Source: Cystobasidiomycetes sp. EMM_F5 (Eukaryota). From it: a DNA stretch of 64,000 bases. Position 1 is the first letter of the stretch. Each line of letters begins with the position of its first letter. This document shows positions 27,643-54,500 of this stretch, one piece after another. The translations under genes and the position numbers were made by a program. Below the pieces are notes generated by a model. It saw nothing but the letters and a program-made list of their open reading frames with translations, had not been told where the DNA came from and did not search any database. The DNA is taken from the NCBI GenBank assembly GCA_051047955.1, contig JBPGPT010000001.1:310001-374000 (forward strand), read 5' to 3'.

Positions 27643-28197
27643 ATGGCGACGATGTCCACATACACTTCTAGCGAACTGCGGTCAAAAACCTTGTACTTGG
27701 CTCTGCTGGTTCATCGGATTACTGTCTGCCGCGCGTATGCCATTGCAGATGGACGTGGTGACATTGGTATTGGCAGGTTGGCGAATGAGACAGCATATGT
27801 CAAGCGCGCTTCGTCTATTGACAATTATACGGGAGAAGACCCAGCAGATGAAGGCGGGTTGCCGCCATGGACAGTCGGACTCTTCCTCGGTGGAGGACTC
27901 TTCGTCATTGTTGTCGTCGTCACCTTCTTGACCTGGTCGCGCCGTAGCAAGATAAAGTCCAGAACTGTGTCCAACAACACTGCAACTCCAGGCACAGGCT
28001 CCGGAAAGTCCGGAGGGTCCGGAGGCTCTGGAGGATCCGGGGGCTCTGGAGGGTCAGGAGGCTCTGGAGGGTCCGGAGGTGCGAGTGGATCGGGAGGGGG
28101 AGGTAATGCAGCGGGTGGCGGAAGTGCTGGTGGTTCAGGCGGTAGTGGTGGAGCTGGAGATGGATCAAGCGGAGCAGCAGGAGGCAGCGGAGCATGA
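27643..28197 (+). CDS. Small single-pass type-I membrane protein (family member 2) with Gly/Ser cytoplasmic tail, intronless
   Basis: 'YVKR/A', 'GGLPPWTVGLFLGGGLFVIVVVVTFLTW' TM, SRRSK and a (GGS)n tail. Confidence 0.8.
   Translation: MATMSTYTSSELRSKTLYLALLVHRITVCRAYAIADGRGDIGIGRLANETAYVKRASSIDNYTGEDPADEGGLPPWTVGLFLGGGLFVIVVVVTFLTWSRRSKIKSRTVSNNTATPGTGSGKSGGSGGSGGSGGSGGSGGSGGSGGASGSGGGGNAAGGGSAGGSGGSGGAGDGSSGAAGGSGA
28009..28080 (+). repeat. Degenerate 9-bp coding tandem repeat encoding (SGG)n
   Basis: tccggaggg / tctggagga / tcaggaggc units vary at synonymous positions, which supports the + strand reading frame. Confidence 0.85.
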
Positions 28198-40635: not shown

Positions 40636-43600
40636 TCAAGCGGAAGGCCAGTATACGTTCGATGGCACGATGACTCCGTCTGACCGAACGAGCAGGAGTT
40701 GACGGGGTATTGTGGTATCCAAGGCATCGTCCACTGGTTCCAGGCACTCGAGCGAGTCTGGACAAGCAGACTCTGAACGCCCGGGACTGGGTATATCCCC
40801 GCTGTAAATCACACCTCTCAGTCCTTGTCTTCCGGCTATCACGCTTCTGCACTCACAACCAAACCGTCCATTCGGGGCCGAAATTCTCGCCATATAGCGC
40901 TATGGATCGGACAATAAAAACGCTCAGCTACTTGCGCGCACGAAGTCAAGGGCTCAAACACGCACTGATGGCGCGTTGGGCTCGGGTTGTTCGTTGGCGA
41001 CGGGGGTTGGAAACGGCTGGATTTGATACTAGGTAGCTCTTAATTGATGGTAGATTGCCGATGGGAATGGTGGGTATTGGAGTCAAGAAGCAATCGGGAC
41101 AGCCTGTAGCTTTGCACTTGTATGGCACTAGGCCGCTGAATAATACCGGCGGGATGTAGAAAGTGTGTCGAGCGATTTCTGCTCGTAACCTGTCAGTCCA
41201 TACTACTTGCAATCACTCTGCATGGTGCGCACCAGTACTAGCTATGGTCCAGCACCCAGCTTCACCGGCGTCTTGCTGCCATGATCCAGTAGCGTCATCT
41301 TCGGGCAATTCCGTTAGGAGAGAAGATGTGGATGCGCCGCGCTTGCGATTACGCATAGGTGTAGATAGTGGCGATGATGTGACTGTGGACAAGCGACGCG
41401 CCTTTTTGACTTTGCCTCCATCGTTCGTAATCGGAACAGCAAGCTCATTGTATGCATCTGTCGACACGGAAGTTGACCTTCCCCGGTTCATATCAACTGC
41501 TCGCGATGCTTGAAGTCCACTTTCGAACGGATTATCGTCTTCGTCTCCAGGCGAGCCGCCCGGATTGGGACTGCTGTCTTGCGAATACGGTAGACGCGGA
41601 CCATCTGACTTTCGGACTCCAACGTTCTCTCCAAGGCACGAGAGAAACGATCCACACCCTTCGAAGCCGGCATTGTCGCCTTGATCTGTGGTTTCATAGG
41701 CTCGTGTTGGGTCTGGCATGACTTCCAATGCGATCCGATGCAATCTGAAGTGCAGTCATAGTCAGTCGCAGTACATGCACGTCCAAAATATGCTTACTGC
41801 GCTACCGGATCGCCCAACGCTTCTCCAGGAGCGGCTGGAAGATCGCAGCCTGGGTGTGCGGACGCCCCATCGGATTTTCCACCTCCGATAGCGATGTTGC
41901 CCTTATCAACTCGCCGTACCAGCATCACGGGGCTCACGACTGCAGTATTCAAACACTGTAGGATAACAGGTTGATTGTAATAGATTGGCATCGGACAACC
42001 GGTCGTTGCCACGGGAAGCGCATTGTTTGGAGGTTGTGGGTAGCCTGGCTGCGATGCAACCTGACCATTGTCTTCTTCCGCAATTGCCGGTCTGCGTGGA
42101 TCTACTGCGTAAATCACAAAGCTGTCCCACGCAGATGTTCGAGCTATGAAGCTACTCTGTTGGTTGTGCGAGAAAGGCTTCTCCTCCTGTCCAGTCATGG
42201 ATTGCCAGTCCGCTTGTGGGAAGCTTGCTGCCGCAGACGATACGCAGAGGAAGCGGGTGCTGACGGTTTGTGAACGAAGTCGACTGAACAGAGCGACAGT
42301 TCCGCCATGTGTGACATACTGACTCGCTTTGCGTGCTGTATTCTGGACCTTCTTGGTCGGCTTGCTAATTATTTTGATCGGCGCGCTTAGGAATGATCCA
42401 ATGACACGGTCTTGATCCGGACCTAGGCCAGGAGCAATAATTTTGACTTCGGCTTGTACAGAGTCGCGCTTGGCATTGGTCTCGGCATCTCCGATGTCTG
42501 GTCTCTGAAAAGGATCGTAGGGCTTGTCCATCCCAAACGCAGAATTACTTCTAGCCTTCTTCAGTTCTTTGCTGAAATCCGGTATGAACAGCTGCTTTCC
42601 TACGACACGACCTGCCACGGAAAAGTCCTCGGCTGATGCAATTTTGTCCACAGTTCCGCCAGCTATGGTGGTCCATTCAAGGGACGTATCGCTTACAGAA
42701 CGGTGATCATGAGTCATGCTGACCTGCACAGACGGAGGCAGAAGCTGAATGGCGGGATTTGTTGAACCAAAATGACGCTTGGCGTTAGCAATATAGGCGT
42801 CGGGTAGATGCGTCCACCAGCTGCAACCTAGTATGAATGCTGAAGGTGGTGGCACAAGAAATCTCCGTTCGGAGCCGTATGATTTCTGCCCGACCGTTGT
42901 AGACATGACGACTACTGTCCTTTCGCCAAGCATTAGCTTATTGGACGTTTCAAGATATTCCGTAATATATGGTCTATACAGAGACACGTAATCAGATCAA
43001 CTGGGATCGGTCGTCGATTTGAACGATAGCGTGTACTCACTTCAAGATAGCGTGGGCTTCGGCATCAGATTCAGGTCTGGCTGGAAGTCTTGCCCAACTC
43101 TGCAGGGTAGCATTATGAAGTTGTTTTCGAACAGGCTGAGACCGGCCAAAGCCCTCGTCTCGCATATCATCAGCATTCAAGCTCGAGCGAGACCCTGTGC
43201 GAGACAGCATCATAGCCTGCTGGGTGATCCCGACAGACGAATCCCTCGATCCAGGTTGTGATAGCGCTAGCTGTTCGGCGCGAGCTTGGAGCGAATGTCC
43301 GGATTGATCCGCATACAGTCTCTGCTCGTACTGCTGTCGCAATGCGTCTTGCATACGCTGCAAATCCTGTTGTTGCTGGACTTTCTGTTGTTGATGTCGC
43401 TGGACCTGTTGAAGCTGACGTTGCTGTAGCAGAAGACGCTGCTGCTGCATCGCCTGCTGTTGCTCCTGCATCGCGAGCTGCTGTTGCCGTTGCTGTAGTA
43501 TCTGCTCTTGTTGTTGTTGCTTGTGCATCTTTTGTTGCATCTCCATCTCGAGATATTGTTGCTGCTCTTGCCATGCAAGCTGCTCCCTCTGACGCTGTTT

Positions 43601-45127
43601 TGGCTCTTCCTCTTGCCGCTGCAAATGCTGTGCACCAAGCAACATGGCATCAAAGTATGATCCGGAAGCATTAACCGGTGCTGCACTATCTAGCTGATTT
43701 GTGGGCAGCTCAGAAGTGGGGTATGGGGAATTAGGATAAGGCGAAATGATGGCTGATCCACCAGGACTAATGGGAGATGAACCATGCATATAACCCGAAT
43801 CCACAGGTTTTGCATACTGCTGATGCTGATAGTTCAGACCAGCACGTCCATGGAATTGCTGTCGGCCATTGCCGTAGGAATGCTGATCGACAGCGCTTTC
43901 GGGATGCAACAGGTCTGACGAAGCCATGCGCGTCATACTATTCGTATGGTTTGTGTCTGCCGGGGCGGACTGATAGAAATTGTATCGGTCCTGGCTCTGC
44001 ATCATCGCGAGCATTTGCGGGGTGATTGCGTTTCCAAAACCTTGCGCGTTCAGGCCAGCAGCGTCTATGGCACTGTAAGCGGACAGAGCAGAGCCAATTA
44101 CAGAAGCAGAAGCCGATGCGCTTGCAGACGGTTGACTGTGTGCTGCACTTGAAGAATTTGCAGAGTATGCATAGTTTCGCCTAGCATCGGTCGAGTCGGT
44201 GTTTGGAGACTGGAACATTACGCTATTCTCCGCGCTCAAGTGACCGCTCGACATAGAAGACGATACTGCACCTGGTTGAGCACTTTCTCCGCTGTTTGAA
44301 GGTAGACCAGCTTGCCCATGTTCGCTGCTCGAGCCATTTGAAGTCGACCATCCAGTATTGAGCGTACTAGGATCGGTGTACAGCGATAGATTGGGTCGCT
44401 TCACTGAGGGCGGTGTGCTCATATTGTCTAAGTTTGCATTCGGCGGAGAAGTCCCATTGTACGCAAACTCTTCCGCCTGATAATCTCGATAATCGTTGTC
44501 GGGGACGGAAGAAGAATTATGGGAAGAGGAGGAATGCGAAGCTAGTGAAGATGAAGAAGCAGAAGAGATGGACGAGGAGGAGAATGCCATTCCTAGAGAC
44601 TCTGCAGCGTAATGAGGATGCAGGCCAACAGCGTCATCGCCTGCTTGAGGTAGTTCGAGGTCAGCTCGAGAAAGAAAGGAAGCGACAGTGGTTGCTGCTG
44701 ATGCAGGAACGACAGTATATGATACTGAAGCACTACTGTCGCCGTTACTACTTCCTACTGAAGAGATCTGAGAGGACAGACTTGCGTGCGAACCACGCCT
44801 GTCGAGACTGAAGGAGGGTGTAAGGAGGTCGGGAGCATCTGAATGCAGATTGTGAGGCTGCGAGGTCGGTCGCAGTGCTGAGAGAGGAGAGGGACTTGGC
44901 TTAGGTTTTGCATCAGTGTGTTTTGTAGATGGATGAGATGCATTGTCGGAAACGGGCCACTCCCAGTCGATTAAAGGTTGCTTGGTAAGGGACGCGGCTG
45001 CATCCTGCTGAAGCGAGCGAGAAGCCATATCTGACCGAGGTAATTGACGATCCACAGAAAACTGATGCGAAGGTAGTCCAGCTACACCATGAGTCTGGTT
45101 GGGCGAGGCGTACTGCACGGTTGCCAT
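40636..45127 (-). CDS. Fungal CSL (CBF1/Su(H)/LAG-1) family transcription factor with about 700-aa low-complexity N-terminus
   Basis: RHR-N 'VGQKSYGSERRFLVPPP' and 'IKIISKPTKK'. BTD 'TVALFSRLRSQTVSTRFL', 'VVSPVMLVRRVDK' and 'DPVAQLHRIA'. RHR-C 'LYGENF..VWFGD..LLVRSDGVIVP'. Confidence 0.92.
43290..43630 (-). repeat. Glutamine-rich (CAG/CAA) low-complexity coding tract in the CSL N-terminus
   Basis: Encodes QQQQEQILQQRQQQLAMQEQQQAMQQQRLLLQQRQLQQ. Confidence 0.85.
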
Positions 45128-46370
45128 GGTGTTGAACGACGTCAATGATTATGCCCCGATAAGGGTAGGGCGACGCCCGGCGTTGAAGCCTGAGGTAATT
45201 TAATGCATGTATGGATGGCCAATGAAGGAGAACGCCAGCGCGTATGTGTGTAGAAGTGTATGCGATTTTGGAGCACGTGAGGGGTGAAGCAGCCGATGAA
45301 ATGTAGGATGAGCAACATGATTCAAGGTGCCTCTCCCATAATGTTTATTAACGAAACTCACCGTACGCGTACGCTGCCGTCTGCAGAAAGGCAACCTCAC
45401 AAGTCTGGCCGGCCTCGACAGGTTCCAAGTGCGATCGACCAGATTCAAGTTTCCGGTCGAGTCGGGTTGACTCTGGGGTCTCCAGACGATGACAATTCTG
45501 CTCTCAACGCGGGCTGATGAACTTTGACTGACGGCGTCAATACGATGAGATTTGTGTGGGTTTGACTAAAAAGTCGCAGGACGGTATCGTGCCTCTCCTC
45601 CACTGGCAATGCGAAAACATGGGTCTGGTTTCACGGATGCCTGCCTTGAGGGGTCGCCTCGCCGGATTCACTCCACAACCTCATATCCCCTTTCAACAAT
45701 CTAACGGGTGTGCTTCGGAACTCTGGCGAGCTCGCAGGGATGGGAAAGCGTTGTGCACGTCTCCGCCTCGAACTCATCAATTGCAAGCTGGGAATTCGAA
45801 GATGCAAGCGGCTTCTCCACCTTTTGTGTACATGTAATCGTGTACATCCAGTCACTGCTCTGTTCACCATCCTCCATGCCTCTACAGTAATGCCCGAGCA
45901 TCACTCCGCTGGATTTACCAACCCTTCGCTAGGCGTGTCTCTGCTGACCACGCCTCCGGAATCCGAAGCTCAAGCTTTCCGAAATGACTGGCGCTAGAAG
46001 GTTGGACACGGGTCAGTCTTTAGCTGTTGACCGTCGCATGAGGGCTGTGCGGCTAGAAGAACTGTACAGTATACATGAAGTAAATGATGATGAAGATTGA
46101 CTGTTGTGTACGTTACTTTGCAATCCTCGTCTCCAGCAGCAGCTCCACAAACCTACGTTGTCCCGTCGCGCGTTTGCCTAAAGTCCAACTGCGCTTTGTC
46201 CAATTTGCCACCTTGAACGCGCAATCACTCGATAAGGAAGCGTGCGCGCCTTGACTTGCAACAGAGACGTAAAGTCGGCAATTTCGACGCAAGCTGCAGC
46301 TCTTTTGAGTCTAAGAGGATTCTCCACACCTCACTCGCCCTCGCCCATCTTCCCCCCGCCAGCTGCAGTC

Positions 46371-48480
46371 ATGCGCTACGCCATCCTCGTCCTATCGGTC
46401 GTCGGGCTCGCATCAGCCGGGCCACTCAGCCGTCACCACGTCGCTGAGAGCGGCAGTCACAATCTAGCACCCATCTACACGCCTCCCAATCCATGGGCTG
46501 CGACTAACTCGGACATCCAGTCCTCGTCGGTGTTTGGCAGCTCGTCGCTCGCCGTTGACAACATCATTCCCGATTCGTACATTGTCGTCCTCAAGGAATC
46601 GCACAGCCACAGACTCCCATTCCACCTCGACCACGTACGCGACTTTATCAGCACGGCATCCACGTCTCGTAGACGATCACTCCGAGATGTCGGCGAGTCG
46701 TTCAAGCACGTCGTCGAGGATGTAAAGCACCACTTTGACGTGGGCGCGCTCAAGGGATATGCTGGCACATTCTCCGAACACACACTGGAATGGATCAGAC
46801 GAAACCCGGCAGTGGAATTTGTAGAGAGGGACTCGGTAGTCCGCGCAATGGATCTCGAAAAGGGAGCACCGTGGGGTCTCGCTCGCTTGTCTCATCGCAA
46901 GCCAATCAGCTTTGCTACTTTGTGAGCGGTCTCCTGCGTATATTCCCTCTCTTGCCCTCCACTAATTTCGTCGGTCATCCTTAGCGGCAAGTACGAATAC
47001 GAGCATGAAGCCGGAAAGGGTGTCGACGTCTACATTATCGATACGTAAGTGAAGAGCATGTCCACCTAGCTATACAGTCCTGATTTTGTGCATGTGTCGA
47101 ACAGCGGCATCAACATCAAGCACGTCGAATTGGAGGGACGCGCCAAATGGGGCAAGACGATGCCTCAAAACGAGTGGGTCCAATTCACACTTCTCATTCA
47201 ATTCCAACAACATGCTAATATACCCGCTTTAGTGTGGACGAAGACGGCAACGGACACGGATCTCATGTCGCTGGAACGATCGGATCCAACAAATATGGTG
47301 TTGCGAAAGCGGCAAACTTGATTGCCGTAAAGGTGTTAGGCTCGTCTGGTTCCGGTTCCATGTCGGATGTCGTTGGTGGTGTAGCGTGGGCTGCTTCCCA
47401 AGCAAAGGCCAAGGTCGAGTCTCAGGAAGCCAAGAACGGAACCCACAAAGGATCTGTTGCCGTGAGTTGGTCTTTTACCAGCACAAGACTATACCCGAAG
47501 TCACGCTGACATGGCCGCCTTGAAAATACCACAGAACATGTCGCTCGGAGGCGGTAAATCACCATCCCTCGACATGGCAGTCAACAATGCCGTAAAGGCC
47601 GGTCTTCATTTCGCAGTAGCTGCAGGCAACGACAACCGTGATGCATGTGCCTACTCGCCAGCAGCAGCAGAGAATGCCATCACCGTCGGAGCATCGACAA
47701 TCGGTGATGCGCGCGCATACTTTTCAAACTACGGTAAATGCGTAGACATCTTTGCGCCAGGCCTCAATATCCTGTCCATCTGGAATACGGGCAATACTTC
47801 TGTCAACGTGAGTCGCATTTCAATGTCCTGATTGAAGATGACACTTCGGCTTTACTGACGTCTTTTACCATTCAGACCATCTCCGGCACTTCAATGGCCT
47901 CCCCACATATTGCCGGACTTGCTGCATACTTCCTGTCCTTATACGGCCACGAGTTTGAGCCAACAGTCGAAGACTATGCAGCAGCTGGCGTACCCTTCCC
48001 AGGCTCTGCCGCAGACAAGGCTTCGCGAGAGCAGGAGTCTAGCAGGTTTAGCAATCTGTGGGGCAAAGGCCGTCAACTCGTCTTCCCGGGTGCATGGAAC
48101 AAGAAGGAACCATCTGCTTCCCTGTTCAAGGCTCTTGACCCCAAGGTCCTCAAGAAGGCTATGATCCGTCTCTCTACTAAAGATGTCTTGAGCGTGAGTT
48201 GAATTGACACAGATCTTCTTGCATTGTACTCATGCTTTTTGCCTTGATTTCTCAGGAAATTCCTTCCGACACCCCCAACTACCTTGCATTCAACAATTTC
48301 ACTGCCCCTTCCACCAAGCTTGTTGAGACTGTCGAGGAGGTCATTGAAGACCAGGTCGTCTCCTACCTTCCCGTATTTGAGAAGGGAGAAGCAATGATCG
48401 AAGAGGCCATTGACAATCTCGAAGATGTCATTGAGCGCGTCTTTGCAGAGGAAGTTGCTGCATGGTACGCAGAGCAGTAA
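46371..48480 (+). CDS. PRB1: Vacuolar subtilisin-like serine protease (proteinase B, S8 with I9 prodomain)
   Basis: Signal peptide, '[10 protein letters not shown]' and '[11 protein letters not shown]'. Catalytic triad motifs 'IIDT|GIN', '[10 protein letters not shown]' and 'SGTSMASPH'. Confidence 0.95.
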
Positions 48481-48785
48481 GCAGTCAACGACGATCTACC
48501 GGATATGGGACGCTCTACATCATCAGTCAAGCCATTCAAGAAGGTTCGTTTTCGGGAAAGCATGAGCAGATTTTTCATCGCTACACACACATCGCTAAAT
48601 ACAATCTACAAATCGAAATCCAAATCATGTAACTGCCCGCTCGCGATTTAGCACGCTCTCCAGCTCCTTTGTATCTGTTGTACGTTGATGTTAATGTAGA
48701 GTACTGCGTATGAACAGACGCGGCGGCTCCTCATGTCGCCACACGTACATCGTCGAACGAATTACCAAAGGTAGCCGGATAATGT

Positions 48786-49782
48786 CTACTTGGCTTTTCT
48801 CGGTCCACCCTGGCCACCGCGACCAGCCTTCGTTACTCGGTTTGGATGTGCATTCGGACGCCGTTCAGACCGAGTACGGCTCGACATCGGCCCGCTTGAA
48901 GTGTCAGCAGCGGGTAACGGTGGTGCTGCTATTGCTGCTGGCATCAAGCGCCTTGCTGGTGCTGACGCCAGTGGTCGACCTGCTGCTGGTGCTGCTGGCG
49001 CTATCAGGGGTAGTTGCGGAGACGACTGATTGTTAATGGTAGCTTGGATGGCCTCAATACGCCTTTCGCCTTGTGCACCCCGCCATTGCTGTTGAGCCCT
49101 GAGCTGTCGACGCTGGGCAAAGAGATTGTCAATCATCTGCCCAGCAGGGCTTGCGGGTACGTTCTGGTTGCTTGTGGGACGGAATCTAAGAGGACGTCAA
49201 TACCGCCTTCGGGTCTCCGTCCATGGCGTATGCCCGCTGGCAGGGGCCTGATAATATAGTGACTCGGATATGTTTTGGGGGATAGCGTGAGGGGCGAGTT
49301 CTCTTTCTTGTTCGCCAGGTAGACTGGTGGAGTGGCGATAGAAAGCAAACACTATTCCCGAAGTGCCGCCTCTTCTGACCGCCTCGCGCTGTACACAGTT
49401 GGATCAAATTCTCCTGCCGCCACTGTAGACCAAATGACAGTCAAAGCAACGGCCTGCGACGTACGATGTTCTCTCCGACAAATTGCCTTCGCTGATGTTC
49501 AAGCCTGGCTGCTTCTTCCCGGTCCAGCAAACCAGGCTGACTTGAAGGCAAAGGTCGAGCAGTTATTGGGAATGGATGGTCTGGCAAGATCGATGGCGGC
49601 ACAGCGTCTGGACCGTTGGCTCTCCGGTATTCCGCCAGGAACTGTGCACCCTACAAGCTGATTGCAGCTGCGGGGCGGTGACGCATGACACTGAAGCTGA
49701 TCCACACCGTCTGTGCATCACGATGCTCATAGAATTGGTTTGTTAGCTGCTCAATCTCTTCGCGCGATGGCCTGCGCGACAT
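48786..49782 (-). pseudogene. Orphan paralog A with 3 exons (49782-49708, 49650-49465, 49388-48786) and one in-frame TGA at 49199-49197; pseudogene or recoded gene
   Basis: The spliced translation aligns over its full length with paralog B on both sides of the stop, and the intron positions match. Confidence 0.75.
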
Positions 49783-49993
49783 ATTGCGGCGGTAAGAGTC
49801 TGATTGATGGATGTAAAGAAAAGCGCCATTGATTCGCTCGACGTCAGGTCAATTCAATAGAGGGGTGTCAGTGCAGTGCAAATGTATGAGAGACCGTCAG
49901 GTGCCTGTGGGACCGCCTCCAACGGGGCAGTGTCTCGGAGCAACTTTCAGTAGTGTAAGCCTACAAAGTTTGACATAGATGATTTGAATGCCT

Positions 49994-50996
49994 TCAACAT
50001 GGTGGATGTGCTGGAATATTGGCTTCAGATGGCTCTTTATGCGGCCTTCTTTGGGCCCCACCCCCCTTGCCGGGCTTTGTAACGCGACTTGGGAAAGGCG
50101 TATTAGGCCGGCTGGAGGAATGTCCCTGAGTCGATCCACCTGGCTGCAATGCCAAAGCTGGAGCAGCAGCAGCAGCAGCCGGAGCTGCAGCCAACAGTCG
50201 CATGCCCGACTGCGACGTGGCAGCAAGCAATTCCTCGATCGTCATTGCATTGACATGCTTAGCAGTAGTTGCTTTCTGTCGCTCGCGGCGGGCTCTTGCG
50301 TCTTTCTTCTGGCGAAAGAGTGCGTGGACGTTGTCTGCTGCCGGACTGAACGGAATACCGGAGCCTGGCGACCGGAGGTGTGACGGCCATATATAATCCC
50401 TGCGTGTTGAAATGATCGGTGTATGGTCATCCTTTACTACTTGACTAAACATGCGCTCCGATATGGATGGAAGGACAGCATGACCGGCAAGCTCAGCTTC
50501 CTGTGTTCGGGGAAGGCCGGTCGTGTTCTGACGGTAAGGGGAGAAGACAAATCCACTCAGACCGGCTTTGCGATGGGCTTCACGCTAATGAAATGTCAAT
50601 AAAGAAAAGATGGAAAGATGTTACCCGCATGTGTGGAATGCCACGAGTCTTTCGCTGAACCTACTGCATTCGCACCCAAAACAATAGCTCTTTCTGTTGA
50701 AAGTACTTCCTGCTTCTTTAGTGTCTGCCGACCGGGTTTTGGTAATGGCACTGTCTGAGCGGGAGATAAGAACGGATGGTTGGGTGTGATTGAGGGTGGG
50801 ACGGAGTTGCGTCCATTCGCCTGCCGATACGCTGTCAACGCGGCTTGACCCTGTCGATGTCGATCAGCATTGGCCAGTTACGAATACCGAGCCATGTATA
50901 TACCGTCTGCTCGTCCAGTCGACCATAGAAGTCAGTAGGATCTGCATCGGCTTGTGTGCGCTGTGGCCGAGCCTGTTTGTTTGATGAATGAGCCAT
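49994..50996 (-). CDS. Orphan paralog B with 3 exons (50996-50904, 50850-50665, 50584-49994), about 289 aa, basic, unknown function
   Basis: Canonical introns give an uninterrupted ORF that is homologous to the adjacent paralog A. Confidence 0.8.
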
Positions 50997-51530
50997 ACGA
51001 TTGGAAGATGCGAGTGTACGGTGCTGATCTATTGTGGGATGCTTCAGTCAATCTGCCAACTCGGTGGGCAGTATCTCGGGCCTTTCTGTCCTTGAGTCGC
51101 GTGGGTGCGGTGTCATGCGGCATCACCATTACAACGCTTTCCCACGGCCGTGATTTCAACGCAAGCAACCTCGCGTAATGCTTTGCGGTCGAAGTATCAG
51201 TGTAAAGCTCGTCTCCGCATCATCTCATTTACAACGCATCGAATGGCCCGCGAAGCATCGCTACATCGGGCGACGGTCTCGGTGACCGTGACGGACGGGG
51301 TGATCGGAGCAGTCCCGGTGGCCGAGCAAAGGGGATGGAGCGGTAGATGTACTGGTGGCCGGTCTGTGCCATTGAACCTCGCTGCATTTGAGGGAAAAAT
51401 TCAGACGGGCGCGACGTGGACGATCTGATCGGACCCAAAACGACGGTCGTTCCAGTCGGTCGCTGTACTCTATCACAGGTGCTGACAAGTTGTTTTAGTG
51501 ACATTTACAGGATGCGCAGCGAACTCTCCA

Positions 51531-54500
51531 TCAGCCTTTGGCTTTAGGCACGGTCGTGTCGTAACTTCGTATGATCCGTTCTTGACTTTCTTCTGTCTGG
51601 GAGAATGCAAAGCCTCTGTTTCGCCGCGTTCTTTGCAGTGCTCGGATCTTCTTGATTGCCTGAGAGAATTGGGTCTTCCGCGGACGATAATCCGGCAGAT
51701 TGAGCCTGTTCGGATGCGACATAAGCTGATAGCTTGTACGATTTCTGAATATACCTACTTCTGAATTTCTTGTATGATATGGTAGGGTTCAGGTCGAGCG
51801 AAATGTTTATAGCTCTTCCATGCAAAATCTCGTGACAAGCAGAGAACGGGCATGAGAATTATTGTGAAATAGAATATGCCGTTGCTCCATAGACGCGGAA
51901 CAATAAGCTGGTATTCAGTAGAGACTGTAATGCTATGAAGTCAGTTGTGGTCCCAGGGCTCCGTCAAATGCATAACCTACCTCCGACTTTCGGCGCAATC
52001 CATTGATAAAGCGGCAGCGAGACGAATGCAAACGCCAGAGAACCTGGTATAGCAGCAACGGTGTACTTTGTCCACAGACTGCGACAAATCTCAGTCGAGT
52101 CACCGTTTCGCTGCATGTTGGCTTACTCTGAGATCATGGCGGCCTTTGCTAAAACCATGACAAGCGTAGCCATGTACACTGTGGTGCCCCAAATCCATTG
52201 ACCAGCTAACCAACCTTGCGGTAAGATCAGCTCGTCGTAGAAGATTGCTACTCCGCATAGGTAGATAATCTGGAATATAAGGTGTTAGAGTGTGCTTTGA
52301 ATAGCGCATGAGGCCGACAGCCATACGACGCAGTGGAAGAGAGCATTCCCGATCCAAGTCCAGAAGATGCGGACATTGAACTGTGCGAGAGAAAACTTAG
52401 TGGTGAATGTAAGCTTCTCGTCTTCAATTCTGATGACTCACGAATGCGTTCATTTGACCGTACTGGTACTGCTCTGGGTATCGATCGAGCATGCGCGCGG
52501 AAACAAACTACGGTTGACGTTAGCTCCAATCTGCGTGCGCAGGCAAGCAGGAGATGGTCACCTGATCGAAGACACCCATCACGACTGGCGGTAGTACGGT
52601 AAAGATAACCTGGATCCACGGCGATTTTAATTATTACTTGTATAGAGAGTGACATTTGCTGCCTACATTGTAGAAGGTAAGGGTCCAAGACTCGAACAGG
52701 ACTTGTCCAGAGAATGCGTTAGAAAAGGCGAACTGCGCGCACGGTTAGAGTGGATGTAACGTCTTTCTAAGGCGCAAGCCTACCCAGAAGCTAGGACAGC
52801 AAGTCAGTCGACCTTTCACTGCTTACACAATACCTAACCTACTTGAGCATGTAGAGCACAATGTTCTTGTAGAATCTTGGTACACACAGTCAGAGAATCT
52901 GTATGCTGAATGACGAACCACACTTACGAGTATAGAATCAACTTGCTGAGGCGTTGATAGCTCCAAGTACCATGGACGAGTAGAAGCTTCGTCAAATAAC
53001 GGAATTGACTAATTGCAACATCGGCAGATCTTGCAGCTTGCAAACCTTCAACACCGGAAATCCCGATGCCGACATGTGCAGCTTGAATCATCGACACATC
53101 ATTGGCGCCGTCACCGATTGCCAGCAGTATACTTTTGGAATTCTTCTTGACTAGCTTTACTACGAGAGCTTTTTGAAGAGGTGAGACGCGACCTACGAAA
53201 GGTGATCAGGCAGGCTTCCTCCGCATGATCGCGCCAAAACTTCTTACAGCATATCACAGCTTTACACATGATTGCAAGTTCGAGAAAATATGGCGATATG
53301 TCCTTCTCCAGCGCATATGTCAGACTTTTACCATCTATGAACGAAAGTTAGCGCAATGCTACGAGAAGACACACTCGATCCTTACCGATAATTAGGGCTA
53401 ACTCTTCCAAATCGCCAGTGTCCTGCTGCGCTTTGATGGCTTGCAATTTCTGAGTAATGTACTTCTTGGTATCTTGAGCATTCTCTTCGTTGACGATGAC
53501 CTGAGGTAAATCTCAGTCACCGTTGACCAAACATTCGTACTCTGACATACCAGACTCATAGCTTCGGAAATCAGGCGACAAGACAAGCCAATGTTGATCG
53601 CCGTTTCCTGCTTGTCACCTGTGAGAACCCAGACTTTGATCCCAGCCTGTTGCAAAGTAGCAATGGCTTCCGGGACACCGTCTTGCAGCTTGTCCTCAAT
53701 CGCAGTGGCACCAAGAAGCATCATATTACGCTCGATGAGCTCAGCAGCCTTGTCAATCTCCTCAGACCGCCCATTGATGGTTGCCGCAGCCTTGTTGTAG
53801 ATGGCTGCCCACTTTGCGTACTCTTCGCTAGGGATTTCGCGCATGGCTATGCATAGCGTGCGTAGACCTTCAGTAGCATATTCCTGCGGTCCTTGATCTT
53901 AGTCTGGCGTGCATTAGTCCATGAAGGAAAAAGGCGCTTACTTCCAAATGCGCCAGCGTGACGTCCGTGAAGGCGTTATTTTCAGCTAGACGTTCGAGTA
54001 TGACTGTGTCCGCTCCCTTGCAGTAAAGCTTGATTTTGCCATCCGGACCTCTGACAATGGTGCTCATTCGCTTTCTAGTCGAGTTGAATTCGATAACATT
54101 GAGAATTTCGTATTCTGTTGGCTTTTCGTCGATCAACACTGTGACAGTTGTAGGTTTCCGGGTCTGCCAGCCGAATGCTAGTGATGAGCACAGTGGCCCA
54201 ATAAGTAGCGATACTACTCACAGTAAAGCGGTATCCAAGCATTTCTGCACCTTGTACCAAAGCCGCCTCGTCTGGACTCGACGCCTGATACACTGTCTTT
54301 TTGTCCTTGATTTCCGGAATGACGGTATGGCACGTCGAAAGCAGAGTCAGAAATTCGCGAATGATTGGCCCGTGTTGAGCATTCGCCGTGCTAATACGAA
54401 GATCAGTAAATTCCAGAACCTCGTCTTTTCTACTCTCATCGACATGCTCTGCATAGCGGATGCCTCCAATGGTGCACTCCCGGAATATCATGACATTCTG

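Follow-up and report, generated by a model that had tools for sequence, protein, structure and literature searches.

A lone in-frame TGA in one copy of a tandem orphan gene pair of Cystobasidiomycetes sp. EMM_F5, with a recent nonsense mutation as the favoured reading

When a gene appears intact in every respect except for one stop codon in the middle of its reading frame, is that codon a lesion, or is it passed in some way during expression? A gene of this kind lies on contig JBPGPT010000001.1 of Cystobasidiomycetes sp. EMM_F5, within a stretch of 64,000 nucleotides that was analysed as a whole and is referred to here as the window (all positions are those of the window). A preliminary description, made from the letters of the DNA, had placed programmed readthrough or stage-specific editing on an equal footing with a recent nonsense mutation or a sequencing error. 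Our analysis shifts that balance towards the nonsense side, and the recoding side was found to lack the signals known for it.

The interrupted gene (paralog A) and its intact neighbour (paralog B) form a tandem pair on the minus strand, with three exons each at matching intron positions, flanked on one side by a plus-strand subtilase gene that ends near 48645 and on the other by a P4-ATPase gene. No third copy was found within the window. The gene models were derived from paralog comparison together with GT..AG borders, and gave the following features.

49782-48786, minus strand: paralog A, 287 codons plus TAG, spliced coding sequence of 864 nt
49708..49782, minus strand: exon 1 of A, ATG at 49782, 25 codons, collinear with exon 1 of B
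49651-49707, minus strand: intron 1 of A, 57 nt, GTGTGG..GTAG, position as in B
49465..49650, minus strand: exon 2 of A, 62 codons, 39% identity to exon 2 of B
49389..49464, minus strand: intron 2 of A, 76 nt, GTACGT..ACAG, phase 0, position as in B
48786..49388, minus strand: exon 3 of A, 63 codons, TGA, 136 open codons, and TAG at 48788-48786
49994..50996, minus strand: paralog B, intact, exons 50996-50904, 50850-50665 and 50584-49994, 289 aa (289 codons plus TGA)

The introns of B measure 53 and 80 nt, and all four introns of the pair are phase 0 at sites corresponding between the copies. When A was searched against the window by tblastn, it matched exon 3 and exon 2 of B (E 2.9e-24), and the two proteins are collinear end to end with approximately 40% identity over 267 aligned codons. 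They share the C-terminal motif RVTKxGxGG, present as RVTKAGRGG in A and RVTKPGKGG in B. The approximate lengths given in the preliminary description (287 aa for A and 289 aa for B) agree with the 287 and 289 codons found, and the peptide strings that it quoted for both copies are present as written.

Several other features of the window were observed. One run, X1 (share 0.07), contributed seven contig records, located on 44546-44579, 47712-48645 and 53603-53646 only, with 48676-53351 left bare. Over the 3' end of the subtilase gene (47876-48645, plus strand) its contigs come from a relative that is 90-99% alike. One of them skips 48194-48255 (62 nt, GT..AG), which confirms this intron and shows that X1 contains spliced RNA from a related organism. 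At 41794-45148 (minus strand) an ORF in which a LAG1/CSL DNA-binding domain was recognised (E 5e-32) adjoins a 703-aa open frame with no Pfam match, and the two could belong to a single large gene as exons. A LAG1/CSL-type gene in the window, together with introns that are short and frequent, presumably fits a non-ascomycete fungus. We also observed a 9/18/36-nt tandem repeat at 27996-28097, comprising about nine copies of AGGCTCCGG inside an open frame, which would encode a Gly/Ser-rich run.

Within the spliced coding sequence of A we found exactly one in-frame internal stop, the sole lesion of the gene, at the place first reported for it.

49197..49199, minus strand: in-frame TGA, codon 151 of paralog A, context TAT TGA CGT (...CGG TAT TGA CGT CCT... 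on the minus strand)

The reported continuation of homology for some 136 codons past the stop was also borne out, with 136 codons open beyond the TGA and collinear with B as far as RVTKxGxGG. Downstream of the TGA, frame 0 has no stops and the other two frames have six each, and the stretch stayed open in just 213 of 20,000 mononucleotide shuffles. In exon 3, the part of A before the stop is identical to B at 32 of 64 positions (50%, E 1e-16), and the 136 amino acids after the stop, searched alone, are identical at 37 of 117 (32%, E 1e-4). As a control we examined all six frames of the window and found 61 places with a single stop between at least 60 open codons on each side; open frames alone are thus unremarkable. 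Many of these 61 places are likely to be phase-0 introns or antisense frames, and they provide a baseline for similar findings of in-frame stops. Judged from the sequence, the site at codon 151 stands out by collinear paralog homology that spans the stop, with no room for a normal intron.

The collinearity of the copies, as described earlier, holds on both sides of the stop and needs correction at the stop itself. The TGA column aligned with an Ile codon (ATA) of B at four of four gap penalties, and the Trp codon (TGG) of B aligned one column later, with the next codon of A, CGT. A pairing of the TGA with the TGG of B was tried at both the DNA and the protein level and was not the optimal alignment. 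Since the stop column is Ile in B, the paralog gives no pointer to an ancestral Trp. The TGA is one transition away from either CGA (Arg, at a CpG site, in the Arg-rich setting RRRY_RPLRFR) or TGG. RIP-like decay was considered and rejected, with GC at 0.50-0.56 across 48000-51000 and a single stop only.

Relatives of the pair were sought in several collections. Three word-seeded searches for protein homologs gave one match among 1787 candidates for exon 3 of B (the window's own P0002, a 152-aa ORF within that exon), no match among 5163 candidates for exon 3 of A read with TGA as W, and no match among 1235 candidates for an exon-2 profile against longer proteins. A HMMER profile of both exon-3 sequences recovered P0002 only from 1.84 billion representatives, and no relatives of A or B were detected in 5.8 billion clustered proteins. 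Pfam contained no family for either copy; a match of Ribosomal_60s to the Ala-rich run of B was discarded as sub-threshold (15 bits against a cut-off of 28.1). Both profiles gave no matches to PDB sequences at E up to 1, exon 3 of B had no usable match in the Protein Atlas, none of 304 pattern matches in JGI metagenome contigs was confirmed, and an exact 33-nt stretch beside the stop had no match in metagenome contigs. Because no relatives were found in them, A and B are lineage-restricted orphans as far as these collections reach.

The C-terminal halves of both proteins are low-complexity and very basic (pI 12.0 in A and 11.2 in B), and rich in Ala, Pro, Gly, Ser and Gln. An AlphaFold2 model of B exon 3, for which A was the only other row of the alignment, had a mean pLDDT of 48 and a pTM of 0.23, and its only moderately confident element was a long helix at residues 81-113 (pLDDT up to 77). 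This helix falls after the position of the stop in A, and a truncation at codon 150 would therefore remove the helix, the basic tail and the end motif.

To what extent has the part beyond the stop been maintained? By the Nei-Gojobori method, the proportion of synonymous differences (pS) between A and B was 0.81 upstream and 0.85 downstream of the stop, and that of nonsynonymous differences (pN) was 0.40 and 0.48, respectively. Synonymous sites are saturated, which makes the duplication of A and B an old one. Since pN downstream (0.48) is close to that upstream (0.40) in the presence of saturated pS, the post-stop region has been under protein constraint for nearly its whole history. A dN/dS comparison downstream of the stop had been suggested in the preliminary description; pN of 0.48 is far below pS of 0.85 there, and the stop itself is not datable in this way at pS above 0.75. 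A codon-usage model built from 2998 codons in Pfam-supported exons of the window ranked frame 0 first on either side of the stop in A, with similar margins. The scores were 0.026 and 0.002 for the halves of A and 0.093 and 0.121 for those of B, and the lower scores of A could mean that weaker constraint applies to the whole of this copy and not to its tail alone. Of the substitutions in the downstream stretch, 3.2% create a stop, and the chance of observing no second lesion is 5% at 0.10-0.04 neutral substitutions per site (for an indel-to-substitution ratio of 0.05-0.2). With no second lesion present, the stop must therefore be very young or the post-stop part must still be under selection; should the post-stop part now be neutral, the age of the stop is below about 0.04-0.10 substitutions per site.

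The explanation to which we give somewhat better than even credence is a genuine nonsense mutation at the TGA, recent in evolutionary terms and confined to the strain or species, in copy A of an old tandem orphan pair. Three things are inferred in this reading: a correct base in the genome, an mRNA left unspliced and unedited at this place, and a recent origin of the mutation; this recency would follow from the neutral-decay argument and not from a comparison of strains or orthologs. Translation of A would normally end at codon 150, and the product would be a truncated protein that lacks the basic, low-complexity C-terminal half with its RVTKxGxGG end. Copy A would then be either a duplicate inactivated only lately (a non-processed pseudogene in the making) or an allele of reduced length, for which the intact adjacent paralog B could serve as backup, and ribosomes that pass the UGA-C would do so by near-cognate decoding as background leakage, not under selection. 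In support of this reading, the lesion is the only one in a three-exon gene that is otherwise intact and has its introns at the positions and in the phases found in B. Two features by which a duplicated pseudogene or nonsense allele is recognised were found here, namely an intact paralog with shared exon-intron structure and a frame-disabling lesion. Pseudogenes are also ordinary in fungal genomes, where they occur by the hundreds, with 436 analysed in F. graminearum (PMC12311193, cited in part). One point against this reading is that an intact, collinear and codon-biased downstream frame would also be expected from selected readthrough or editing.

Of the alternatives, the one that survives best is an error of assembly or base calling, or a collapsed heterozygous site, such that the true genome, the other nucleus or the other allele carries a sense codon and A is intact. 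One substitution would be enough for this, as eight of the nine single-base neighbours of TGA are sense codons, the rest of gene A is intact, and the TGA at 49197-49199 is covered by no read. Against it, the site lies outside any homopolymer or simple repeat, and the long Pfam-supported exons of the window run through approximately 9 kb without a frame break, which suggests a polished assembly. The large conserved exons of the window (400-703 codons) are intact, and errors are therefore not rife in the assembly. Among error classes, substitutions are the rarer one. We consider an error or collapsed site unlikely.

Rather unlikely as well is the broader proposal that A is conditionally decoded, with the UGA passed by either UGA-C readthrough or UGA-to-UGG editing in a hairpin loop, so that a stage- or condition-specific product of 287 aa would be made beside a constitutive one of 150 aa. 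Its two forms can be weighed separately. In the first, selected readthrough, a near-cognate tRNA (Trp, Arg or Cys) would decode the UGA-C and yield isoforms of 150 and 287 aa, and we give this form a low probability. That UGA-C is a leaky stop context, as noted earlier, agrees with the cited part of PMC4207609, in which C is the leakiest +1 base after UGA. The 136 codons that stay open, collinear and codon-biased are consistent with readthrough, as is the location of the sole moderately confident helix of the B model (pLDDT up to 77) past the stop position. In the same source, as far as cited here, the core readthrough motif of Ustilago maydis is UGA CU(A), and efficiency is set mainly by the first two bases after the stop. 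At the stop of A, the C at +1 is present but is followed by G, U and C at +2, +3 and +4, in place of U, A and G; the +2 base is thus G and not U. The 97 nt 3' of the stop showed no significant RNA structure, with a fold at z -0.45 (64 of 200 shuffles as good) and the first stem about 50 nt downstream. Further points against selected readthrough are that the sequence past the stop belongs to the ancestral protein body and carries no added signal (its end, ..PRKAK, is not PTS1-like), and that paralog B has no stop at that place.

Other ways of decoding the UGA found no support: for selenocysteine there was no SECIS match and the B column is Ile rather than Cys, a local suppressor tRNA is lacking since no tRNA genes were found in the window, and reassignment of TGA is unlikely because B terminates on TGA as a working stop. 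A search of Rfam at E up to 10 over 48000-51500 gave two chance-level matches only, both to other families, and no SECIS, and there were no matches at the gathering score in the whole window.

Removal of the stop from the mRNA, through a recently intronized segment or alternative splicing, is the next alternative. Several in-frame GT..AG pairs cover the TGA codon, with lengths of 54, 78, 93, 105 and 114 nt, in addition to pairs of 18 and 33 nt that fall below any supported intron length. The following candidates were considered in particular.

49203-49150, minus strand: candidate in-frame GT..AG intron over the TGA, 54 nt
49263-49186, minus strand: candidate in-frame GT..AG intron over the TGA, 78 nt
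49203-49099, minus strand: candidate in-frame GT..AG intron over the TGA, 105 nt

As a reference for splice signals we used the five supported introns, four from paralog comparison and one (48194-48255) from the spliced X1 contig. They measure 53-80 nt, with YAG at the 3' end in every case and a G at donor position +5 in four. This +5 G is missing from all of the candidate introns. The 54-nt candidate closes on AAG and lacks a yTnAy branch motif, while the 78-nt candidate starts from a weak donor (GTCACT) and its excision would cost the protein the conserved HTP..TRRxY block. The surroundings of the stop do resemble the branch-site and acceptor end of intron 2 of B, in that 49186-49205 (minus strand) and the intron end at 50585-50603 both read TATTGAC, 10 nt, TAG; this is probably chance, since motifs of this length turn up often. 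In fission yeasts, intronization has been documented at a low frequency (PMC3629103, in the part cited), but the segment in A still aligns as protein with B, where there is no intron. On these sequence signals, splicing out of the TGA appears unlikely, and we rate it slightly below readthrough.

An older stop was also considered, in which A has long coded for the 150-aa N-terminal part only and the downstream frame is open by chance or in some other role. The N-terminal part is indeed the better conserved (in exon 3, 50% before and 32% after the stop), and single stops between long open frames are common, as the 61 places in the window attest. However, the downstream stretch stays open in so few shuffles (213 of 20,000), is collinear with B to the last motif without a frameshift relative to it, and has a pN (0.48) so far below its pS (0.85) that a long-standing truncation is very improbable.

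The second form of conditional decoding, restorative A-to-I editing, would deaminate the A of the UGA at some life stage to give UGG (Trp), and only then would the full-length protein be made. We observed a predicted hairpin in which the stop is placed.

49176..49222, minus strand: predicted RNA hairpin around the stop, 8-bp outer and 4-bp inner stem, 7-nt loop GUAUUGA, marginal support

The last base of this predicted 7-nt loop is the A of UGA, a placement in line with the preference of fungal editing for hairpin loops, by which approximately 71 pseudogenes are rescued in F. graminearum (PMC11156358 and PMC10776026, both cited in part). UGA-to-UGG changes have been described in the basidiomycete Microbotryum in a 2026 paper (PMC13608869, in the excerpt cited). 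The hairpin is marginal (z -1.9): the 55-nt fold has -17.8 kcal/mol and z -1.90, with 8 of 200 shuffles as good, and the 161-nt context has z -1.97, with 7 of 200. The inner stem alone was no better than chance (z -0.59), and the hairpin is absent from the matching stretch of B (z +1.18). The sequence around the A also speaks against editing. Premature-stop correction in F. graminearum and N. crassa, as given in the cited parts of PMC11156358 and PMC10776026, changes UAG to UGG with U at -1 strongly preferred, as are hairpin loops. In A the codon is UGA, the edited A would not be preceded by U, and the -1 base is G, where the known stop-correcting editing has U (PMC11156358, cited in part) and Microbotryum prefers C (PMC13608869, cited in part). 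The loop base in the anticodon-34-like position, preceded by U, would be the A of the Tyr codon UAU and not that of UGA, and the column in B is Ile, not Trp. Reports of editing in basidiomycetes are termed artefactual in the cited part of PMC11156358, and in that of PMC7306014 the stop-correcting type was 'not reported' in basidiomycetes as of its publication. We regard restorative editing as the least probable of the explanations.

The observation is real and gives no positive sign of a new mechanism. If the favoured reading of a recent nonsense mutation is right, the locus would be a snapshot of a lineage-restricted tandem pair of which one copy has just been truncated, and would be useful only for annotation: A should then be labelled a pseudogene or a gene for a 150-aa product, and the stop should not be hidden behind an invented intron. 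If decoding or editing were true, the restorative recoding of pseudogenes would reach a new fungal group outside the filamentous ascomycetes, and at UGA rather than UAG. An extension of restorative recoding to basidiomycetes is currently debated, and copy A gives it no positive support.

Compared with known systems, the stop of A shares several features with the UGA CU(A) readthrough of U. maydis and other fungi (Stiebler et al. 2014, PMC4207609, cited in part), namely a nuclear gene of a fungus in which C follows the UGA and the frame is open past it. It differs in having G at +2, in being internal (codon 151 of 287) rather than a normal terminator, and in an extension of 136 ancestral codons rather than a short PTS1 tail. 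With the restorative editing known in Fusarium graminearum and in Neurospora crassa (PMC11156358, PMC10776026, in the parts cited) it has in common a lone in-frame stop, an apparent pseudogene and a target A in a predicted loop. There, however, the codon is UAG with U at -1, and editing belongs to the sexual stage of filamentous ascomycetes, whereas A has UGA with G at -1, and paralog B has no Trp at the column of its stop. The UGA-to-UGG changes of Microbotryum (PMC13608869, cited in part) are the codon change proposed for A, and in a basidiomycete, but they prefer C at -1, where A has G, and as described in that part they concern stop codons in general and not a rescued internal stop. Unlike a typical young duplicated pseudogene, A stems from a duplication that is itself old, and since synonymous sites are saturated, the pair does not represent decay straight after duplication. 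Like a young duplicated pseudogene or nonsense allele, A has an adjacent intact, parent-like copy, retained introns, one point lesion and a frame that is otherwise open.
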